Positions 244-59,288 of a DNA stretch of 64,000 nt are shown here, in pieces. Position 1 is the first letter of the stretch; the number at the start of each line of letters is the position of its first letter. Below the pieces are notes generated by a model. The model did not search any database, was not told the DNA's origin, and saw only the letters and a program-made list of their open reading frames with translations. The stretch is from Chloropicon primus. Its lineage: Eukaryota. The translations under genes and the position numbers were made by a program. The DNA lies in assembly GCA_023205875.1 (NCBI GenBank), contig CP060757.1, positions 558,001 to 622,000 on the forward strand. The letters run 5' to 3'.

Positions 244-1326
244 TCAATCCGAGTTCGCCTCGACGGACTCCTTCTTCTTCTCCTTCTTCCCAAAGCCCTT
301 GGCGGCAGCGGCGCTCTGCACCAGGGGCGTGTCCTCCAGGATCCCCTTGACGTAGACCTTCCCCTTCTCGACGAACCCGGTCTCCTTGGCGAACCTCTCG
401 ATCTCCTCCTTGTCGCACTGCAGGATGACGTCGGTCCACTTGTCGTCGTCGCTCGTCACCATCTTGACCTTGGCCTCCTCGGTCCTCGTCCCGTTGCTCA
501 TGTAGTACGCGTAGGACCCCGGGGTGAGGAGCAGCATGGTGTACCACCAGCTGCCCACGCTGGGGTAGATCGTGGAGAGCACGAGGGCGATGGAGGCGAG
601 GCCGAGGAACACGTAGAACGCCAGCGCAATCCCCTGGCCCCGGTTGGCCTCGTACACGCCCTGGAAGGTGATGACCTCGCCCGTCTCCGCGATCTTGTAG
701 TTGTACTTGGTGAAGTAGGTCGCCACGACGCTCGCGACCTCGTCCAGCCCCCCCCCCTGCGCGGGGCCGGGGACCTGGAACGTCATGCTCTTCACGGAGG
801 CCTTGGGCGCCCGCTTGACGAGGGACCACAGCCCCGGGGCCGTCAGGACGACGAGGCCGAGGGAGGCCCAGTACGAGCCCGCGTCTCCCGCGAACGTCCC
901 CAAGTCCGGGGAGGAAGGCAGGGAGGAAGGCAGGGAGGAAGGCAGGGCGTCGGCGAGGGCCGGGTCGCTCAGCGCGGTGGCGACAGCGTCCGCCGAGGAG
1001 GAAGGCAGGGCGTCGGCGAGGGCCGGGTCGCTCAGCGCGGTGGCGACAGCGTCCGCCGAGGAGGAAGGCAGGGCGTCGGCGAGGGCCGGGTCGCTCAGCG
1101 CGGTGGCGACAGCGTCCGCCGAGGACGAAGGCAGGGCGTCCGCAGACGCCGCCTCCTCCACGAGGGCGAGCAGGAGGAGCTCCTGCACGCCGAGCGCCGA
1201 GGAGCGGCTCCTCAGCCTCCGCGGGGCTCTGAGGCGCAGCCTCGACTGCGCGAGCCTCGGCCCGCCGATTCGCGTGACCGCCGCGTCCTTCCTCGCCAGT
1301 GGCGCAGAGCCAGCACCACCAGCCAT
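244..1326 (-). CDS. CCB1: Cofactor assembly of complex C subunit B CCB1 (plastid, cytochrome b6 heme ci attachment)
   Basis: 360-aa ORF with a transit-peptide-like N-terminus and a core resembling CCB1/DUF3529 (YWASLGLVVLTAPGLWSLVKRA...ITFQGVYEANRGQ...YYM...R.EE.KVKM...EEIERF..E.G..EKGKVYVKG). Confidence 0.85.
   Translation of the reverse strand: MAGGAGSAPLARKDAAVTRIGGPRLAQSRLRLRAPRRLRSRSSALGVQELLLLALVEEAASADALPSSSADAVATALSDPALADALPSSSADAVATALSDPALADALPSSSADAVATALSDPALADALPSSLPSSLPSSPDLGTFAGDAGSYWASLGLVVLTAPGLWSLVKRAPKASVKSMTFQVPGPAQGGGLDEVASVVATYFTKYNYKIAETGEVITFQGVYEANRGQGIALAFYVFLGLASIALVLSTIYPSVGSWWYTMLLLTPGSYAYYMSNGTRTEEAKVKMVTSDDDKWTDVILQCDKEEIERFAKETGFVEKGKVYVKGILEDTPLVQSAAAAKGFGKKEKKKESVEANSD
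930..1145 (-). repeat. 60-bp in-frame tandem repeat (~3 copies) inside CCB1
   Basis: Unit encodes SSSADAVATALSDPALADALP; near-identical copies visible directly. Confidence 0.9.
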
Positions 1327-1677
1327 CGTGTGAGCGATTACCTTGCCAGTTCCTCCTGTCTTCTTGTCTTGTTGTTTTGTGGGACGCGGATTGTGGGAGT
1401 GCAGATGCTGCTGCTGCTGCTACGCGGCGCGGCGCGGCTCCTCTGTGCGTGCGGGTGTCCAAAATCCCAGACGCCTTCGCTCGCGCTCCGGTGGATGCGG
1501 GGTTCGTCGCCCTCCTCCTCGTCCCGCTTGTGGCTCACAGGAGCCCCCCCTCGGCTTGTGGATAGGGCACGGCGACGACGACGGGGGGGTCCATCTCTAT
1601 ATATTCAAGAAATTGTCGTTCATCATGTTTGTTTAAGTGTAACTTTGGTGGTACACTAAAAAACCGCGTTAGCTCAG

Positions 1678-1755
1678 GTACGTCTCAGGAAGAAAAACCT
1701 CGCCACCCGACGTTGAATCTCCCACTGACATGCGAATTTCGTCCGATCTATGTAG
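1678..1755 (+). other. 78-nt D-loop intron of tRNA-Lys with spliceosomal GT-AG signals
   Basis: Donor CAG|GTACGT, branch ACTGAC (1724-1729), acceptor TGTAG|; removal restores the D-arm and acceptor stem. Confidence 0.8.
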
Positions 1756-1778
1756 TTTGGTAGAGCGCCAGACTTTTA

Positions 1779-1816
1779 CTCTTAGTACGGGGATCTACTC
1801 TCGAAAAAGTCCAGTT
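1779..1816 (+). other. Canonical 37/38 tRNA intron (38 nt)
   Basis: Starts one nt after the anticodon; intron G1814 (antepenultimate) can form the anticodon-intron pair with C32; AAAAGTC is complementary to GACTTTT. Confidence 0.85.
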
Positions 1817-2152
1817 ATCTGGTGGTCGTGGGTTCGAGCCCCACATGCGGTGTCACCGCGGCGAAACAACAGTCGCCTCTCCTCTTGCTCCGTGAGACAA
1901 AGGTTCGGTGAGAGACGTTAGTTAGACGGTCGAGAGAGAAAGAGCCGCCGGCCGTAACGCCAAAGCCGCGGCCGACGAGTACGGCGACGAGAAGACCACG
2001 ACCAGAGAGAGAGAGAGAAAGCGATGAGTTCGAGTTACCTCCTGGAATACTTCAGCCGCTGGTTGCCGCCGAGGCCGACGAAGAAGAGGAGACTGACGAA
2101 TACTGGGTCCCACGTCCGACGTTGCGACGTCATTTGAGGGAGGCCTTGGCCG

Positions 2153-3175
2153 TTACAACTTTACTTTGATCTTTGTTGATCTTTGATGATCTTCTCGTGA
2201 CTGTTCTTGGTCCGCCTCCTCCCCCTCGTCCACGTCCTGGTCCTCGTCCGCACCTCGGGGCTTGCGGCTGAGCTCGCTGTCGAAGAACACGTTGGCGACC
2301 ACGAGGATGTCGTTGAAGGAGTCCTGGAGGTACTTGTCCAATTCCCTGATGCGCCCGAACCTGTCGCGGTTGTCCCCAATCGTGATGTACTCCTGAAAAG
2401 CCCTCAGCTTCACCGCCGGGTCGTCGCTCAGATCTGTGATGCGCTGCACCGCTTCCAGGACGTCCTGGTACTCGCGGAGCTCGCTCCTCCTCCGGCCGTA
2501 CACGAGGCGCACGGTTTCGGCCATGTTCGCCCGGCAGGCCCTCGCCACGAGGGCCTCGTCCACGTGCCAGTGGCACTTGGCGCCCTTGGCGGAGGCTCCA
2601 CCGCCCTCTCGCCCCGCCTGTTGGACGAAGCCCGCGAAGAAGAGCTGGACCAGGGCGGCCCGGACCCCCTTGATGGACGCGAAGACCAGAGGCTGGATCT
2701 CCTTGGACGACAAGGGGCCGGACGTGGGGCACTCGACCCTGAGCAGCCGGAAGATCCTCCTGGGCAGCGGGCCGAGGCTCTTCCCCTCCGTCTGCACCTG
2801 ACCGAGCTTTTGCTCGACCAGGGCCTCGGCGTGGGCGAGCTGCAGCTCGGACCAAAAGCCTTGGAAGCCGAACGAGTAGCGGCCCGCGACCTTGCGGAGG
2901 AACCCCCACGAGTGCCCGCACAGGCGGCCCAGGCCGCCCTCGACCGTGGCTCTGTCCGGCAGGGCCAACGACTCCTCCTCCTCCTCGCGACGGAGCGCCT
3001 GCCAGAGCGCCTGGCAGACTTCGTTCAGGGAAAACTGGCAAGGGCCGTCCCACCAAATGCCCCAGCCCCCCGCGGCGTGCCTCCTCCGCCTGTAGGCCAG
3101 GATCAGACCCCGGAAGGCGGCCACGTCCCGCGTAGATCCCCAGATCTCGTCCCTGAAACTGAGTCGCTCCTTCTC

Positions 3176-3206
<31 letters not shown>

Positions 3207-4261
3207 TCTTCGTCGTCGTCTTCGTCGTCGTGGCCGTATTGCTCCTCGGCCCACCCCACGGAGTAATCCTCCTTGAAGCGATCGTGGAACTCCTGGGCGT
3301 TGACCCTCCACAGCACGCTGGGCTCCTTGCGCTCCCCAAAGTCGAGCTCGAACTTCTCCTCGAACATCTCGTCGTAAGCCGCCGTGGCCTTGGACCACTG
3401 CTCCTTCCTCTCCGGGACCACCTCCGCGAGGCCCTTGTGCCCCCGCTTCATGCTCTGCTTGACGGACCTCAGCTCCCACGGCGGGGGGAGCTGAGCCGAG
3501 GGCACCCTCTCCACGTAACGCCTCGTCACCAGCTTGTCGAACACGTCGCCAAAGTCGTCCTTGCCGAAGCCTAACTGGGGCTCCGCTTCATCGCAGAGCC
3601 CCTTGCTCACGTCGACCGCTTCGCTTCTGCTCAGCCTGCCGTGGACGATCAGGGTCTCCAGGACGTACTCCCCGACCTTGCCCAAGTCGGAGGACTTTAT
3701 CTCGAGCATCAAGGTCGGGAAGCTCGTCAGCACGAACGCGTAGTCCGTGTCCAGCATGTAGATGAAGTGCTTCTCCTCCACGAGCACCGGCTCCGAGAGC
3801 TCCCCGCGGGGCCTGGCGGGCAATCTCCCCTGCTCGGCGGTCTGACCCTCCTCCCGGACCACCAGCCTCGTGCACAGGTAGGTCCGAACCACGTTCAGCT
3901 TGGTGAGTATCCAGAGGGTATGCTTCACGCCCTCCTCGCAGATCTTCCCCCCGGCCTCGTCCCTCGCGTTCTCCGCGATCTCCTCGAGGGTCGCATTCCC
4001 TCTCGCGGCCAACACCCTGGCCACCGCCCCAGCCACTTTGCCGAACTTGTCCTCCACGTGAAACACGAACAACTCCAGCTCCTCCGGCGTGGCCACGCCG
4101 GCGCGCGCCGACGAAGCAGCCTGCTCCCCGTGTCCCTCGCCGTCGCGAAAAGGCGGCGTCGACGCCGGGCCTTCCGCGGGCCATTGCCTCCCGGGTTTGG
4201 CCGCACTCTTGGACTTTGGCTTCCCCTTCTTCTTCGACTTGGACGACTTCGACCTCGCCAT
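2153..4261 (-). CDS. RPC3: RNA polymerase III subunit RPC3 (C82/POLR3C)
   Basis: Winged-helix-type motifs (VEDKFGKVAGAV..VL..RG..TL; ETLIVHGRL; FDKLV.RRYVERVP; WRVN..EF; RRIFRLL); first ATG at 4261. Confidence 0.75.
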
Positions 4262-11657: not shown

Positions 11658-13526
11658 ATGCTGCTTGGAGCCTCGATCTTGTCATTGGGAAGGGGTTGGC
11701 CGACGCGGCGCCCCTTGGGAAGGGGGAAAGGACGGGGAGTGTTGGTGCCTCCTCCTCCTCCTCCTCCTCCTCTTCGGTGTCCCGGTCCCTCCTCCGTGCC
11801 GTCGTCGCGCGTCGTCGTCGTCGCGAGGGCGGACGCCAGGGAGCAAGGGAAGGAGGACTTGATCCTCGAGCCCGATTCGAAGGTCCTCTTCGTGGCGTGT
11901 CTGACGGGCCTGTGGACCGGCTCTGGAGTGGTTGCCTTGAATCGAGCCATCCATGCGGTGGAGGACGCCACGGACGCGCTGGGCGACGCGCTTCCAGGCC
12001 CCGGGGCGCTTCTCGTGCCGGTGATCGGCGGGGTGACCGTGTCGCTGATCCAGGTGTTGATGAATGGTCGTGAGGGGCTCGCGGGGAAGATGAGGGCGGT
12101 CCTCGACCCGGTTCTCGCCGCGGTCACGTTGGGGACGGGCTTCAGCCTCGGGCCGGAGGGCCCCAGCGTGGAGATAGGAAAGTCTCTGGCGAAGACCTTC
12201 AGGCGTCGGGCCATCCCGGAGAGGTGCTTCACCGCCCTGCTGGCGGCCGGGTCTGCCGCTGGAATCTCCGCGGGGTTCAACGCCCCAATCTCCGGAGTGT
12301 TCTTTGCTCTGGAGACGGTCCTGGAGAGGGAGACCTCGCAGGCGCGGAAAGCCAAGGCGGGGGACGCTCCCCCCCCCCCGAAGGAGGCCTTGGACCTCGC
12401 GGTCGTCACCCTTGCGAGCGTCCTCGCCGCAATCGTGTCGCAGATTGGGCTGGGCGCGGAGCCCGCCATGTCGATCCCAGAGTACCGGCTCGGCACCTAC
12501 GTGGATTTTCCGCTGTACCTCGTCTTGGGCTTTCTCTCGGGCGGTGTCAGCGTCGCCTTCACGAAATCCGTCTCGTGGTTCGACGAGTCCCTGGCGAGCC
12601 GCGACATTCCCAGGGAGGCGCTTCCAGTCTTCGGGGGGATCGCAATGGGCTTGATCGCTTGCTACGTCTCTCCCGAGGTCACGTACCAAGGGTTCGAGAA
12701 CTTCAACAAGATTTTGAGCGACACGGGGAGCTTCACCATTCCTGCTTTGGGTGTCATCTGCCTCTCCAAGATCGTGGCGACCTCCATCTCCAAGGCCTCG
12801 GGGCTTGTTGGAGGGATTTACGCGCCCACCCTCTTTCTCGGGGCCGCGACCGGCTCGCTCTACGGGAAGCTCCTCGACAACGTGTTTGTCGGGACACCGC
12901 TAGAGAATTTGGTCGCAGGGCAAGAGTCTTTTGCTCTGGTGGGGATGGCCAGCACCCTGTCAGCGGTCTGCAGGGTTCCGCTCACGTCCACGCTCTTGCT
13001 CTTCGAGCTGACAAGGGATTATAGCCTCATTCTGCCCACGCTTGGGGGCGTAGCCCTCTCCTTCCTGTTCGTGTCGTCCTCGGAGGGGTCCTCCCTGTTC
13101 TCCTCGCCGGCCAGGCCAGGAGAGCTGCCCGCCGCCTCAGGTGACGCGGTGATTGCCGCTGCCCCGGCGTCGGTCCCTGGCCTGGTCGTGGTTGGAGAAG
13201 ACGTTGAGGCCGCCGAGCTGCTTGGGCTGCTGGAAGACTGCTCCCGCCCTTACTTTGTCCAATATCGCGGCGGAGGAAACGGAGGTGGCCAGCGAACACC
13301 TCGCAGGATTGTGACTTCGGCTCGGGTGAGGGAGGCCCTCGTCGAGGCGACAGGGCCGATGGACAGGGCGGAAGTCGAGGAAATTCTGGCGCAGTGGGGC
13401 ACCGAGATTTTCCAGGTCGTGAGCCAAGAGGATGAAATCGGGTCCCTGCTGACGAGCGAGCCGAGCGACGAACTCTTCCTCGTGGTGGACCAGTCTTCGA
13501 ACCCAGTTGGAATTCTGCAGAAGTGA
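11658..13526 (+). CDS. CLC-family chloride channel, plastid CLC-e/f-like
   Basis: LGPEGPSVEIG, AAGISAGFNAPI.GV.FALE, GG.YAP.LF.GA, P.T..LL.FELT.DY; transit-peptide-like N-terminus. Confidence 0.9.
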   Translation: MLLGASILSLGRGWPTRRPLGRGKGRGVLVPPPPPPPPLRCPGPSSVPSSRVVVVARADAREQGKEDLILEPDSKVLFVACLTGLWTGSGVVALNRAIHAVEDATDALGDALPGPGALLVPVIGGVTVSLIQVLMNGREGLAGKMRAVLDPVLAAVTLGTGFSLGPEGPSVEIGKSLAKTFRRRAIPERCFTALLAAGSAAGISAGFNAPISGVFFALETVLERETSQARKAKAGDAPPPPKEALDLAVVTLASVLAAIVSQIGLGAEPAMSIPEYRLGTYVDFPLYLVLGFLSGGVSVAFTKSVSWFDESLASRDIPREALPVFGGIAMGLIACYVSPEVTYQGFENFNKILSDTGSFTIPALGVICLSKIVATSISKASGLVGGIYAPTLFLGAATGSLYGKLLDNVFVGTPLENLVAGQESFALVGMASTLSAVCRVPLTSTLLLFELTRDYSLILPTLGGVALSFLFVSSSEGSSLFSSPARPGELPAASGDAVIAAAPASVPGLVVVGEDVEAAELLGLLEDCSRPYFVQYRGGGNGGGQRTPRRIVTSARVREALVEATGPMDRAEVEEILAQWGTEIFQVVSQEDEIGSLLTSEPSDELFLVVDQSSNPVGILQK

Positions 13527-18100: not shown

Positions 18101-19471
18101 ATGATGATGGCGTCTTCGCTCCACGCGACGACGAGAAGGATGGCGGCAGGGACCTGCGGGAGGCGTCTCCTGTCCGAGGGTTGGGGCACGGGTGTGCGCG
18201 TCACCGGGGCGGTGGCTGGCTCCTCTTACCTCGCGGAAAGGAGCTTCTTCAGCGGTGGTGGGGAGGGAAACAGCTTTGGTGGATCCGACAGGGTCCCACC
18301 GAGTTTCATCAGGAACAGGCACCGCTTGAATCTTCCCGCGAACACGATTGTGAAGATCGTTCCCCAGCAGGAGGCTTGGGTGATCGAACGCTTCGGCAAG
18401 TTCAACCGAGTCCTTGACAGCGGCATTCACCTGCTCATCCCGATAGTCGACTCCATCAGGTACGTGCACAACTTGAAGGAGCAGACGCTGGACATTCCGA
18501 ACCAGAATGCGATTACGCGAGACAACGTTGCGGTCACCATCGACGGTATTCTCTATGTCAGGGTCGTGGACCCCTACAAGGCCTCTTATGGGGTGGAAGA
18601 TCCCCTTTACGCCGTGCAGATGCTCGCCCAGACCACCATGAGAAGCGAGATAGGTAAAATATCCTTGGACAAAACCTTTGAGGAGAGAGACTCGCTGAAC
18701 GTGAAGATTGTGAAGAGGTAAGATTATTCACCCGCACGGGGGGGGCTCTTTGCACGCGCGCTGACGCCGTTGTTGTTTGTTTTGCCTCTCTTTCTCCTCG
18801 TGCCCGACGACGCCACGCGCGCCAGCATCAACGAGGCGAGCTCTGCCTGGGGCCTGGAGTGCATGAGGTACGAGATCAGGGACATCGCCCCGCCTTTCGG
18901 AGTCAAGGCGGCCATGGAGCTGCAGGCGGAAGCGGAGAGGAGGAAGAGGGCCACGGTATTGGAGTCGGAGGGTGAGAAGCAGAGCGCCATAAACAAAGCT
19001 CAGGGAGAGAAGGAGGCCAAGATATTAGCGTCGGAGGCCAAGGCCCAGGAGATGATCAACAAGGCCGATGGAGAGGCGGAGTCTATCCTCAGGCTCGCAG
19101 ATGCGACTGCGAATGGTATCAAGACGGTAGCAAAGTCCGTTGGGGCTCAGGGCGCGGAAGGAGCTATCAAGCTTAGAATCGCGGAGCAGTACATATCAGC
19201 CTTCGAGAAGCTGGCCAGGGAGACGAACACGATCGTGCTGCCTCAGAATCTGAGCGACACGAACTCCATGGTGGCGCAGGCGATGGCCATTTACAACTCT
19301 TTTGGCAAGCAGAAAGCGGTGCTGCCACCTGGACTCCCGGCCGGTGAGGAGGGCGACCATGCGGAAGGTGAGGAGGCCCACGACGAGGGAGACGGCGAGG
19401 GAGACGGCGAGGGAGACGAGGAGGACGAGGCCCCCCAAGGACCCAAGCCTCCGTTCTCCTTGCAGAGTTAA
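18101..19471 (+). CDS. Mitochondrial stomatin-like protein 2 (SPFH); intron 18718-18825
   Basis: VPQQEAWVIERFGKF, TRDNV.V.IDG.LY, LAQTTMRSEIG, AERRKRA; GTAAG..CTGAC..CAG intron joins the frames. Confidence 0.93.
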
Positions 19472-36167: not shown

Positions 36168-37941
36168 ATGAAGTACATATACGTCACGGGTGGTGTTGTA
36201 TCGGGTTTGGGTAAGGGCGTGACGGCTTCGTCCATGGGAGTTCTTCTCAAGTCACTTGGGCTGCGCATCACGAGCATTAAAGTGGATCCGTATTTGAATG
36301 TCGACGCCGGGACGATGTCTCCCTACGAGGTAAGTTCGACGGTCTCCTTCGCTGTTGTGCACGCCGGGGGAAAACTGACGCGTGAGGGACGCTGCCGTTC
36401 GCCTCGTCTTTCGACACAAGCACGGCGAGGTCTTCGTGTTGGATGACGGTGGAGAGGTGGACTTGGACCTTGGCAACTACGAGCGTTTCATCGGAATAAC
36501 CCTGACGAAGGACCACAACATAACGACGGGAAAGATATTCCAGGCCGTGATCGAGAAGGAGAGGGAGGGCGCTTTCCTTGGGAAGACGGTGCAGGTCGTG
36601 CCTCACCTGACGGACGCGATCCAGGACTGGATCGAGAGGGTGGCCCACATACCCGTCGACGGCTCTGGGCAGACGCCAGACGTGTGCATCATCGAGCTCG
36701 GGGGCACCGTTGGTGACATAGAGTCGGGGCCTTTCTTGGAGGCCCTGAGGCAGTTCCAGTTCAGGCACAAGGCGCACGACGTGTGCTCGGTTCACGTGAG
36801 CCTCGTGCCGGTTTTGGGCGTTGTTGGGGAGCAGAAGACGAAGCCGACGCAGCACAGTGTTCAGGTTCTGCGCTCGGTGGGAATTTCACCCAACTTCCTG
36901 GCGTGCAGAAGCAAGGAGCCCCTGGAGGAGAGCACCAAGGAGAAACTCGCGCTGTTCTGCCACGTGCCGCCGACCCACGTCATGAACCTCTCCGACGTCT
37001 CGAACATCTGGCACGTGCCCTTGGTGATGAGAGACCAGGGAGTGCACAAGGCCATCTGCGAGCAGCTGCAGATCACTCCGCCGCACGCCCTCGACATCGA
37101 GCGGTGGGAGGAGAGGGCCTTGAGGTGGGACAGCCTTCAGGACACCGTAACGATTGCCGTGATCGGCAAGTACACGGGCCTCACCGACTCTTACCTTAGC
37201 GTCATGAAGTCCCTGCAGCACGCCGCCATTGCCGCGAACAGGAAGCTGAAGATAACCTGGGTCGAGGCCTCCGACCTGGAGGAGCCCATGAAGGAGACGA
37301 GTCTGCAGAAGTACCAGACGGCTTGGAAGGCCGTGGAGGACTGCGACGGAATCTTGGTCCCCGGAGGTTTCGGTGGCAGGGGCACGGAGGGGAAGGCAGC
37401 CTGCTGCAAGTACGCAAGAGAGACGAAAAAGCCGTTCTTCGGGATCTGCTTGGGCATGCAGGTCGCCTGCATCGAGTTTGCCAGGAACGTGCTCGGGATG
37501 GAGGGAGCGAACAGCACTGAAATCGATCCCGCCACCCCCCACCCGGTGGTCGTGTTCATGCCAGAGGGCTCCACGACGCACATGGGCGGGACAATGAGGC
37601 TGGGCAGCAGAAGGACCTTCTTGCAAGAAGCCCAGTGCCTCAGTGCCCTGCTGTACCAGAAGATGGAGTACATTGACGAGAGGCACAGGCATAGGTACGA
37701 GGTGAACCCGGAGATGATCCACTTGTTTGAGGAGAAGGGTTTCAAGTTTGTGGGCAAGGACGAGACGGGCAGGCGCATGGAAATCATCGAATTGAAGGGC
37801 CACCCGTTCTACGTTGCTTGCCAGTTCCATCCTGAATACAAGTCCAGGCCCGGAAAGCCGAGCGCTTTGTTCTTGGGGCTCATCCTTGCTGCCAGCAAGC
37901 AGTTGCACCACTACATGTCCGGCTACGAATCGGAGGCGTGA
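36168..37941 (+). CDS. pyrG: CTP synthase; intron 36330-36420
   Basis: [67 protein letters not shown]. Confidence 0.97.
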
Positions 37942-39874: not shown

Positions 39875-40163
39875 ATGACATTGTTTTACGCCATGTTCCT
39901 GACCCCCGTGGGTCTGATCGCGCAGCTGAGGTCGAAGACCATCATCGCGATACCGCTGTGCCTCCTCGCGATCGGGCTCCAGTCGGGGCTCGGGGACGAG
40001 ATCCTGTTCCAGGAGTACACGCTCGGGGGGGTCCTGTGCAACGCCATGACGTTGGTGCTCCTCTCCCTGGCCTTCGCGATAAGGCAGACGAACGTGTACA
40101 AGGTAAGGCGAGGCGGTGCCGGATCTCCCGCCCCAGAGCGCCAGGACTGACGCACCCTCTCTT

Positions 40164-40195
<32 letters not shown>

Positions 40196-41002
40196 TCTTT
40201 CTGCGTTGCGTTGCGTTGCGTTGCGTTGCGTGTGTGTGTGCCCCCCGCGCGCGCCTCTCCCTCGCAGGAGCTGAGAGACAACTTGAAGGAGCGCCCCTGG
40301 TGCACCAAGGAGACCTGCGCCGTGTCGAACGACGCGATCAGCGCCACCGTGTGCCCGTTCTCCGGCCTCGGCGCGAGCATGAGATGCCCAAACTGCTACA
40401 CGTGCGTGAGCAGCCCGGCGTACCACTTCGAGGACAGGTTCCACGCCTACGGAAAGCAGTACGTGATCAACTGGGAGAGGGCCAAGGACGTGATGATGAC
40501 GAGCAAGGACCCCACGATCGGCAGGCAGCTTCTCGACGAGGTCCTGGACTACAGGTGCAACCCTTACTTCGGCACGGTGACGGACTGCTGCGTTGGCTGC
40601 GCCCTGTCCGACAGGAACTACTTCGCGTTGGACATGCTTTTGGTCATGACCTCCGTCTACTCGCTGATCCTCGCCTCGATTCCGTACGTTCTCCCGGCGT
40701 ACGTGAACGCCAAGGGGATCCTGATGTTCCTGTCCTGCGCGTCCATCTTCCTCGCGAGCTGCTCCATCCTGATCACCACCAAGATCCTTTGCACTTCCTT
40801 GTACTTCTGCAAGATCTTCCCCGACTTGAAGTTCAGGTACCAGGTGGACATGGAGGACCACTGGTTCCTCAGGAAGCTCGTCGCGTTCATGCTGGGAAGG
40901 AAGGGCGCGGTGGCGGTCTCCAACAACTCCCTGCAGAACCAGATTCACAACGAGAAGGCGAAGTTCGTGTCCCTTGCTGCAAAGCTCAAGGCCCTGAGAT
41001 AG
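39875..41002 (+). CDS. Hypothetical membrane protein; intron 40103-40267
   Basis: Hydrophobic helices flanking a Cys-rich loop; GTAAG..ACTGAC..CAG intron restores frame. Confidence 0.7.
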
Positions 41003-48600: not shown

Positions 48601-48803
48601 CTCTCAGTCCTCGCGCTCTCCAGCACCATCCGATCCACGCACCACCCCTTTGAGCTCCTTCGATAGGTTACAGCCAAGCCCGCTGCTGTGGAGGCCTGAG
48701 CGTGTTGCAGGGTTCGAGCCTGTTCCCACGACCCTGCCCCTCTTCCTTCCTTGTCCTCCACTCGCCCCTCCTCCACGGAAACGAAGGAGACCTGAAAAAA
48801 CAA
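48601..48803 (-). pseudogene. Internally deleted partial copy of the sulfotransferase gene at 58035-59288
   Basis: 48639-48794 matches 59025-59180 (1 mismatch seen); 48601-48635 matches the parent's 3' end (~58032-58073). Confidence 0.85.
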
Positions 48804-58034: not shown

Positions 58035-59288
58035 TCAGTCCCAAGTCCGCGCGCTCTCCAGCACCGTCCGATCAATGCAAGGATACCCGCAGCCGCGGTC
58101 TCGGTCGTAACAGTTGCTTTCGGCCTTCTCTGGCTGAGCCACGCCCTCCGAAGTGCACTGGAACACCGTTTTCTCCAAGCACTCCTCTTCAACCCTTTCC
58201 TTGAGCTTCCTGTACCTCGCGAGCGCCTCGTCGAACTTGGGCCTCCCCCACGCCTCGATGGACTTGTCCAGACTGAGGCTGGCGGCCTCGTGGAGCAGGT
58301 AGTCCCCGTAATTCTGCGCGTACCAACTTGATGAATTCAGGTAGAGTCCCACCTTTCTGGAAACGAAGCTCGGTGCGATCCGGAGACATTTTCCGAGCCA
58401 AGGAAAGTAGTGATATCTATCGTGGACTTTTGAGCTGACCGTCAACAAATCGCCCACGTCGATACCGAGGAGCAGCCCCAGCATCACCACGGATTCGTCC
58501 ATGCGCTCCACCACGACCATGAAATCGTAGTCACGAAGGATTGCCTTGACCCTCCCCGTCAATGCCACCGGATTCCGCACTCTCGTTTTGTGCTCCCAAG
58601 TGAAGTACACCCAATCCTTTGCGCCAGGCTCGCGGAGATCCAAGTACCTCGTCTGGAAACCCCCCTGCCCCTTCGATACGGCCCCATACTGGTGGTCGGT
58701 CGTGTGGCTCAGCCAATCAAGCACGTTCTCGTCGGTCGGATCCAGTCCTTTCTGCGTGACCCCAACCCAGAAGACCCGGGAGACCGCACGATTTGCTGGA
58801 TCCCTCACCGAGCCCAGCAGGAAGGATCGCGCTTTGTCCCTCCTCGCGTACTTTTGCGCCTCATTGGTGTGCTCGTTACGAAAGTCCTCGCACTCGTTTT
58901 CAATCGCTATTCTGTGCACGATGCTCGCCAACGTGGAGCTCGCGCTCTTGGGCACCTTCACGTACAGCAAGCCTCTCGGTATAGCCGCCGGCGATCCGTC
59001 CGGGGGATACATCGATCTGCGGGTGCACCACCCCTTTGAGCTCCTTCGATAGGTTACAGCCAAGCCCGCTGCTGTGGAGGCCTGAGCGTGTTGCAGGGTT
59101 CGAGCCTGTTCCCACGACCCTGCTCCTCTTCCTTCCTTGTCCTCCACTCGCCCCTCCTCCACGGAAACGAAGGAGACCTGGAAAACAACAAGTCCAGTCA
59201 CAGCGAGGAGCACGACGAGGCCTACCACCGCATCCCTCCCCCTCCTCCGGCCCCGCACTCGCCACCTCCTCGTCATCGCCATCGCCAT
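58035..59288 (-). CDS. Golgi-type (type II membrane) carbohydrate sulfotransferase
   Basis: N-terminal TM; 5'-PSB YVKVPKSASST; 3'-PB SVRDP..RAVS; YDF....ERMDES. Confidence 0.8.
   Translation of the reverse strand: MAMAMTRRWRVRGRRRGRDAVVGLVVLLAVTGLVVFQVSFVSVEEGRVEDKEGRGAGSWEQARTLQHAQASTAAGLAVTYRRSSKGWCTRRSMYPPDGSPAAIPRGLLYVKVPKSASSTLASIVHRIAIENECEDFRNEHTNEAQKYARRDKARSFLLGSVRDPANRAVSRVFWVGVTQKGLDPTDENVLDWLSHTTDHQYGAVSKGQGGFQTRYLDLREPGAKDWVYFTWEHKTRVRNPVALTGRVKAILRDYDFMVVVERMDESVVMLGLLLGIDVGDLLTVSSKVHDRYHYFPWLGKCLRIAPSFVSRKVGLYLNSSSWYAQNYGDYLLHEAASLSLDKSIEAWGRPKFDEALARYRKLKERVEEECLEKTVFQCTSEGVAQPEKAESNCYDRDRGCGYPCIDRTVLESARTWD

Follow-up and report, generated by a model that had tools for sequence, protein, structure and literature searches.

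How does a tRNA gene whose 5' end is separated from the rest of its body by 78 nt give rise to a working tRNA? This question is raised by a locus of the green alga Chloropicon primus at 1663..1852 on the plus strand of the window, by which we mean the whole 64,000-nucleotide (64-kb) stretch of DNA analyzed here (contig CP060757.1, positions 558,001 to 622,000). A first-pass annotation had described the locus as a tRNA-Lys(UUU) gene that carries an apparently spliceosomal insert in its D-loop in addition to a normal tRNA intron, and all of its coordinates were reproduced.

Structure of the gene and of the restored tRNA

Exon 1 (1663-1677, plus strand) covers tRNA positions 1-15 and supplies the 5' strand of the acceptor stem, U8, the 5' strand of the D-stem, A14, G15, and the start of the A box. 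It is followed on the same strand by the 78-nt insert at position 15/16 of the D-loop (1678-1755), with a GTACGT donor, an ACTGAC branch motif (A1728), and a TAG acceptor. Exon 2 (1756-1778, plus strand; positions 16-37) contributes G18 and G19, the 3' strand of the D-stem, and the UUU anticodon at 1775-1777. A canonical 38-nt tRNA intron at 37/38 (1779-1816, plus strand), called as such by ARAGORN, separates it from exon 3 (1817-1852, plus strand; positions 38-73), which holds an intact B box (1831-1841), the T arm, and the 3' strand of the acceptor stem. The C32:G anticodon-intron pair proposed for the 37/38 intron can form, with C32 (1773) facing G1814, the third-last intron base.

The assignment of the 15 nt at 1663-1677 as the missing 5' end is borne out by what they complete, namely the acceptor stem (7/7 pairs), U8, the D-stem (4/4 pairs), and A14. 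In a cloverleaf-completion scan, 1663 was the sole plus-strand position in the 64 kb to supply a fitting 5' exon. Upon in silico removal of 1678-1755, ARAGORN reports a tRNA-Lys(ttt) of 74 nt that is interrupted by an intron of 38 nt, which is the call that the first-pass annotation had anticipated for the spliced sequence. Its expectation that standard finders would miss such a gene also holds for ARAGORN, which makes no tRNA call on the unspliced locus, and for Rfam at the gathering threshold, which returns no match across the whole window. A relaxed Rfam scan recovers the 3' fragment alone (1753-1844), at 23.2 bits against a threshold of 29.

The restored body forms 21/21 stem pairs (one of them G-U), agrees with 18/18 conserved positions, and keeps the tertiary pairs 8:14, 15:48, 19:56, and 54:58. 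It is identical at 53-67 of 74 bases to 15 intronless Lys-UUU genes of viral contigs, the closest of which differs from it by compensating acceptor changes. The cloverleaf, invariant bases, UUU anticodon, and B box of a cytosolic tRNA-Lys(UUU) gene are all present, and the gene is real and probably functional.

Because AG stands at both insert junctions, cuts at 13/14, 14/15, and 15/16 are equivalent and yield an identical product; GT..AG ends are obtained in the 15/16 register only. The hexamer CTCAGG at the border of exon 1 and the insert (1673-1678) is repeated 11 nt further on inside the insert (1684-1689), perhaps as a trace of origin. A circularly permuted or split tRNA gene was ruled out, the exons being colinear within 190 nt. 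Elsewhere in the window, an ARAGORN call of tRNA-Ser at 12121-12295 was rejected for want of a B box, and the low-threshold ARAGORN list (229 calls) was treated as noise.

Splice signals within the insert

The insert begins GTACGT after CAG, contains ACTGAC with the branch A1728 27 nt before its end, and ends in TAG, exactly as the first-pass annotation had it. The comparison set for these signals was drawn from Logan contigs of four runs (X1-X4), whose type we guessed to be RNA. Six GT-AG introns between 28000 and 47500 are missing from the contigs, and silent stretches have no cover; the runs are thereby shown to be RNA of this organism. These six introns (five from a joint table and one from split contig pieces) served as the reference and as the training set (n=6).

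All six reference introns begin AG|GTA and contain CTRAY, and three of the six hold ACTGAC. The claim that the insert shares the grammar of the window's mRNA introns stands for two of the examples given for it, 36330-36420 and 40103-40267, both seen spliced in RNA contigs; the third, 18718-18825, lies outside the interval covered. The branch A of the insert is at intron position 51, the reference values being 38, 48, 49, 62, 77, and 128, and its distance to the intron end is 27 nt versus 7-117 nt in the reference introns. The TAG at 1753-1755 contains the insert's sole AG downstream of A1728, and the acceptor is likewise the first AG after the branch in 3/6 reference introns. From branch to acceptor, the pyrimidine share is 0.58, near the low end of the range in the six (0.53-1.0).

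The donor CAG|GTACGT matches the U1-pairing consensus at 8/9 positions and ranks among the top 100 of 6926 GT sites, of which just 9 have CTRAC 30-80 nt downstream. With its C at +4, it scores 5.9 bits on the six-intron matrix versus 10.7-14.1 for the reference introns; leave-one-out scoring gives 5.5-6.4 versus 5.9-12.8. By criteria set post hoc, donor, branch, and acceptor motifs occurred together in 1/200,000 single-base shuffles of the insert, and the product of the three separate motif rates in the shuffles is ~2e-5. The insert folds no better than its shuffles (z -0.03). With respect to Introner-type features, the 64 kb holds no second copy of the insert, and the junction repeat is the 2-nt AG only. 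The insert shows three sequence features of a U2-type spliceosomal intron.

Group I and group II self-splicing introns were rejected as candidates on the basis of the 78-nt length, the lack of an Rfam match, and the lack of a stable fold. As a separate observation, the introns 18718-18825, 36330-36420, and 40103-40267 have their branch A 47-49 nt from the 5' end, while the distance from branch to acceptor runs from 42 to 117 nt; the donor-to-branch distance is possibly fixed in C. primus.

Comparison with archaeal tRNA introns

A bulge-helix-bulge could not be built at the insert junction, in line with the first-pass annotation: the three equivalent registers form 1, 1, and 2 of the 4 central pairs. 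The flanking intron helix has 0-1 pairs versus 2-8 in 13 archaeal controls. These controls stem from a background scan that retrieved 16 prokaryotic loci (L002-L017), from which the 13 archaeal Lys-UUU genes were kept and 3 loci without an upstream exon were dropped. Their intron sits at the same 15/16 site, with a central helix of 4/4 pairs in 10/13 and 3/4 in the other 3. None of the 13 control introns starts with GT and none holds CTRAC, and the 78-nt insert exceeds their range of 17-51 nt. The archaeal 15/16 introns also end in AG; the terminal AG is therefore weak evidence, and it is the GT donor and the branch motif that carry the argument. Slipped bulge-helix-bulge registers with a 4/4 helix (3/81 tried) were rejected, as the product would lack G15-G18 or keep 8 bases too many. 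Judged by its sequence, the insert belongs neither to the bulge-helix-bulge introns nor to the self-splicing introns, and the gene is no permuted tRNA. The archaeal genes form a set of their own: 13 tRNA-Lys(UUU) genes from Micrarchaeota, Nitrososphaerales, and others with bulge-helix-bulge introns of 17-51 nt at 15/16, several of them with more introns.

Transcription and genomic surroundings

Contigs covering the tRNA gene came from X1 only, X2-X4 being without cover of the locus. An unstranded 230-nt X1 contig over 1658-1885 (depth 13, 0 differences) retains both introns, and no spliced junction at the tRNA appears in the contigs of any of the four runs. Its left end falls exactly at 1658, 5 nt before the mature 5' end and at an A after a pyrimidine, as expected for a pre-tRNA start; X1 cover is absent at 1475-1608. 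We annotate 1658..1662 (plus strand) as a putative 5-nt 5' leader with A1658 as the candidate start, on the strength of this contig end. The contig could instead be antisense, arising from read-through of the RPC3 3' UTR or from a minus-strand transcript ending in the U-run 1663-1658. An insert-free form is not expected among the contigs, because leader and exon 1 together make a 20-nt tip, shorter than a 31-mer.

The insert splits the A box and leaves the B box whole. Immediately upstream lies the sequence TGGTGGT.CACT.AAAA (1646..1662, plus strand), a candidate start-site or gene-external promoter element; its core, GGTGGTNCACT, occurs exactly once in the window. The same motif, in the general form TGGTGGT.CACT.WAAAA, precedes 10/19 tRNA genes of a giant-virus tRNA cluster (L328:2015-4292), ~8 nt farther from the mature end; contig L328 also encodes Erv1/Alr, a gene typical of giant viruses. 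The motif is found before tRNA-like sequence in L319, L371, and five phage-like contigs as well, and in the latter five it may be part of a hairpin. The host lineage and the virus may share it as an element of tRNA promoters or start sites. A literature search on it found nothing, and no upstream element is named for chlorovirus tRNA clusters in the accessible part of PMC7589089.

After the gene, no T4 run occurs on the plus strand until 2808. The absence of a T-run terminator is unusual for Pol III, and Pol II transcription or read-through is possible; algae have fewer T at such terminators, according to a portion of a review (PMC13578239). Directly 3' of the tRNA, in the usual place of a T-run terminator, lies a dispersed repeat of ~67 nt (1858..1924, no strand assigned), within which the right end of the X1 contig falls. 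Several X1 and X4 contigs match this repeat and then continue into other sequence. It has no second copy within the window and no significant fold.

The left neighbor is CCB1 (244..1326, minus strand; Pfam PF12046), with 81% identity to a cluster containing a Chloropicon roscoffensis protein. To the right lies RPC3/RPC82, a subunit of RNA polymerase III (2153..4261, minus strand; Pfam PF08221, with PF05645 below the cut-off), whose 3' UTR points toward the tRNA gene. The gene order CCB1, RPC3, FAS1-domain protein, hypothetical protein, and kinesin equals that of the published C. primus protein table. This table, which is protein-only and in which the rRNA tag is off-series, has no locus tag between CCB1 and RPC3.

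Other features of these surroundings were recorded in passing. RNA contigs show a second, diverged copy of RPC3/RPC82 with many substitutions and two replaced stretches, and the gene may be duplicated. The part of CCB1 encoding the N-terminus contains three 63-nt tandem copies (934-1143), and an X3 contig jumps from 907 to 1060 in this gene, through either repeat collapse or a length variant. Two 161-nt copies that are 99% identical (48639-48799 and 59025-59185) carry a B-box-like GGTTCGAGCC and have no Rfam match; a SINE-like or Pol III element is possible.

Searches for orthologs and other Lys-UUU genes

A metagenome scan with a pattern of exon 2 plus a 37/38 intron not starting with A retrieved 37 loci, none of them Chloropicon-like; orthologs whose anticodon stem has changed or whose intron starts with A would escape this pattern. 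By inspection, the 37 comprise 34 archaeal-type and 2 giant-virus-like tRNAs, all with whole D-loops, and 1 chance match. Scans of viral contigs for a GT-branch-AG insert at 15/16 gave 0 and 3 hits, with no true match, as the 3 were chance matches or tandem tRNAs. The CCB1 locus was not found in viral contigs. The tRNA-Lys(UUU) genes at L396:1319-1404 and in L399, which resemble those of giant viruses, carry a short 37/38 intron and are close kin of the L328 copy, which has no intron.

In five ORFs of the window, AAA, a codon that a CUU anticodon cannot decode, accounts for 13/185 Lys codons; with AAA codons in use, a Lys-UUU tRNA is needed. For Chloropicon genomes, PMC12301720 gives 39-46 tRNA genes, annotated by means of tRNAscan-SE. 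A published anticodon list for Chloropicon was not found: PMC7678280 has no Chloropicon row, and the term "tRNA-Lys" is absent from the file of PMC12301720 and from the PMC6731263 supplementary files examined (14 of 20, file 16 in part).

Proposed maturation and alternative explanations

The central proposal of the first-pass annotation, that one tRNA matures through two splicing machineries, is supported by sequence and analogy: the signals fit a U2-type intron, a bulge-helix-bulge is missing, and the body is intact. We assign a probability of roughly 75% to a maturation in which the spliceosome would remove the insert first and the tRNA endonuclease would then remove the 37/38 intron. Transcription would start near A1658, probably by Pol III (by ~2 to 1 over Pol II), and the upstream element would aid it, given that the insert breaks the A box. 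U1 would pair with CAG|GUACGU and U2 with the branch region at A1728, the first AG downstream (1754-1755) would serve as acceptor, and the insert would leave as a lariat. The tRNA splicing endonuclease requires the mature domain of the tRNA. As the cloverleaf would fold only after removal of the insert, the endonuclease would cut at 37/38 second, an order that agrees with the partial account available for Cyanidioschyzon merolae, in which removal of the 37/38 intron comes last (PMC3978253). RNase P, RNase Z, and CCA addition would finish the tRNA for AAA codons. The intron itself may have been gained at an AG proto-splice site supplied by tRNA positions A14-G15.

The alternative that weighs most against this maturation, although we consider it unlikely, is that a spliceosomal-type intron or small element recently entered a spare or silent Lys-UUU copy or allele, from which it is poorly or never removed, with an uninterrupted gene elsewhere supplying the tRNA. 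RNA seen in the unspliced form only would agree with such a copy, as would the broken A box, the missing T-run terminator with a dispersed repeat directly behind the gene, and the failure of the metagenome scan to find an ortholog. C. primus is, moreover, described as mostly diploid in part of PMC12301720, so an insert-free allele is possible. A silent copy, however, is hard to reconcile with a 74-nt body without decay and with the intact C32:G pair of the second intron and upstream element. The 39-46 tRNA genes per Chloropicon genome would also leave little room for spares, and the unspliced RNA loses force since the spliced form, with a tip of 20 nt against a 31-mer, could not show in contigs.

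Considerably less probable is that a tRNA splicing endonuclease of relaxed specificity cuts the insert as an ectopic tRNA intron, comparable to those of Cyanidioschyzon and the Guillardia nucleomorph, with the GT, branch, and AG signals coincidental. Sen2 and Sen54 homologues are annotated in C. primus, the archaeal Lys-UUU introns occupy the same 15/16 site and also end in AG, and algal ectopic D-loop tRNA introns exist, some without a defined bulge-helix-bulge by a passage of PMC3978253. The same source, again in part, says that green algae have almost no ectopic tRNA introns. Coincidence would have to produce three splice signals at a joint chance of ~1e-5, and the endonuclease would have to act on a junction with a central helix of at most 2/4 pairs, a flanking helix of 0-1 pairs, and no significant fold, in an insert of 78 nt where the archaeal set has 17-51 nt. 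An assembly artifact or chance juxtaposition of a tRNA fragment and unrelated sequence is already largely refuted and is very improbable: no independent DNA run is listed, but the RNA run X1 has a contig that spans both inserts with 0 differences, and exon 1 is unique in the 64 kb.

A broader form of the two-machinery maturation is more tentative, and we place it somewhat short of even odds. The gene would be the sole tRNA-Lys(UUU) gene of Chloropicon, so that the reading of AAA would depend on the spliceosome. The upstream element, common with the giant-virus tRNA cluster, would drive tRNA genes, free the A box, and admit mRNA-type introns, and more such hidden genes would lie behind the low tRNA counts (39-46).

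Relation to known systems

The closest natural parallels lie in other noncoding RNA genes. U6 of Schizosaccharomyces pombe is a Pol III RNA whose intron is removed by the spliceosome, and mRNA-type introns are also found in U6 of other fungi and in U1, U2, and U5 snRNA and rRNA genes, as described in part of PMC5855946. Like them, the Chloropicon insert is a short intron with a canonical 5' site, branch, and 3' site in a gene for a small structured noncoding RNA. The interior of the fungal U6-type introns is unconserved, and they are possibly species-specific gains (PMC5855946, in part). Unlike U6, the host tRNA does not act inside the spliceosome; because it works elsewhere, the insertion site is not accounted for by reverse splicing at the active site. 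The tRNA gene differs further in that the insert breaks an A-box promoter, maturation calls for removal of a second intron that is cut by proteins, and the host is a green alga.

A pre-mRNA intron engineered into a yeast tRNA gene was reportedly removed by the pre-mRNA pathway in work by Koehrer, Vogel and Domdey (1990, EMBO J). The intron there is of the same kind and also in a tRNA, but that gene was a laboratory construct, whereas the one here is natural. This reported experiment, S. pombe U6, and the capping of yeast pre-tRNAs together suggest that spliceosomal splicing of a tRNA is feasible. On the last point, yeast Pol III pre-tRNAs can be capped, as stated in a portion of PMC13451320.

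Ectopic introns of archaea and C. merolae offer a different likeness, as they too combine a D-loop 15/16 intron of tRNA-Lys(UUU) with a 37/38 intron. The insert nevertheless departs from the archaeal introns in being longer, in having no bulge-helix-bulge, and in possessing a GT donor and branch motif (absent in 13/13 archaeal). For C. merolae, upstream elements have been proposed to serve those tRNA genes whose A box is broken, according to part of PMC3978253.

The literature searched, which was covered mostly at listing level and thinly for subscription journals, yielded no case of a spliceosomal intron in a natural tRNA gene. A recent review calls nuclear tRNA splicing spliceosome-independent in the part available (PMC13149111), and "spliceosom" does not occur in the available part of a 2026 review on tRNA genes of photosynthetic organisms (PMC13578239).

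Implications

If the proposed maturation is correct, a natural tRNA would depend on the spliceosome, and the supply of this one tRNA would be tied to the capacity for mRNA splicing. It would also mean that splicing can act on a probable Pol III transcript whose first exon is 20 nt long, and it would weaken the idea that noncoding RNAs gain such introns only close to the spliceosome's active site. Chloropicon is cultured and fully sequenced, which makes the proposal testable. As split genes of this kind are invisible to ARAGORN and to Rfam at threshold, the counts of tRNA genes in compact algal genomes may be too low.
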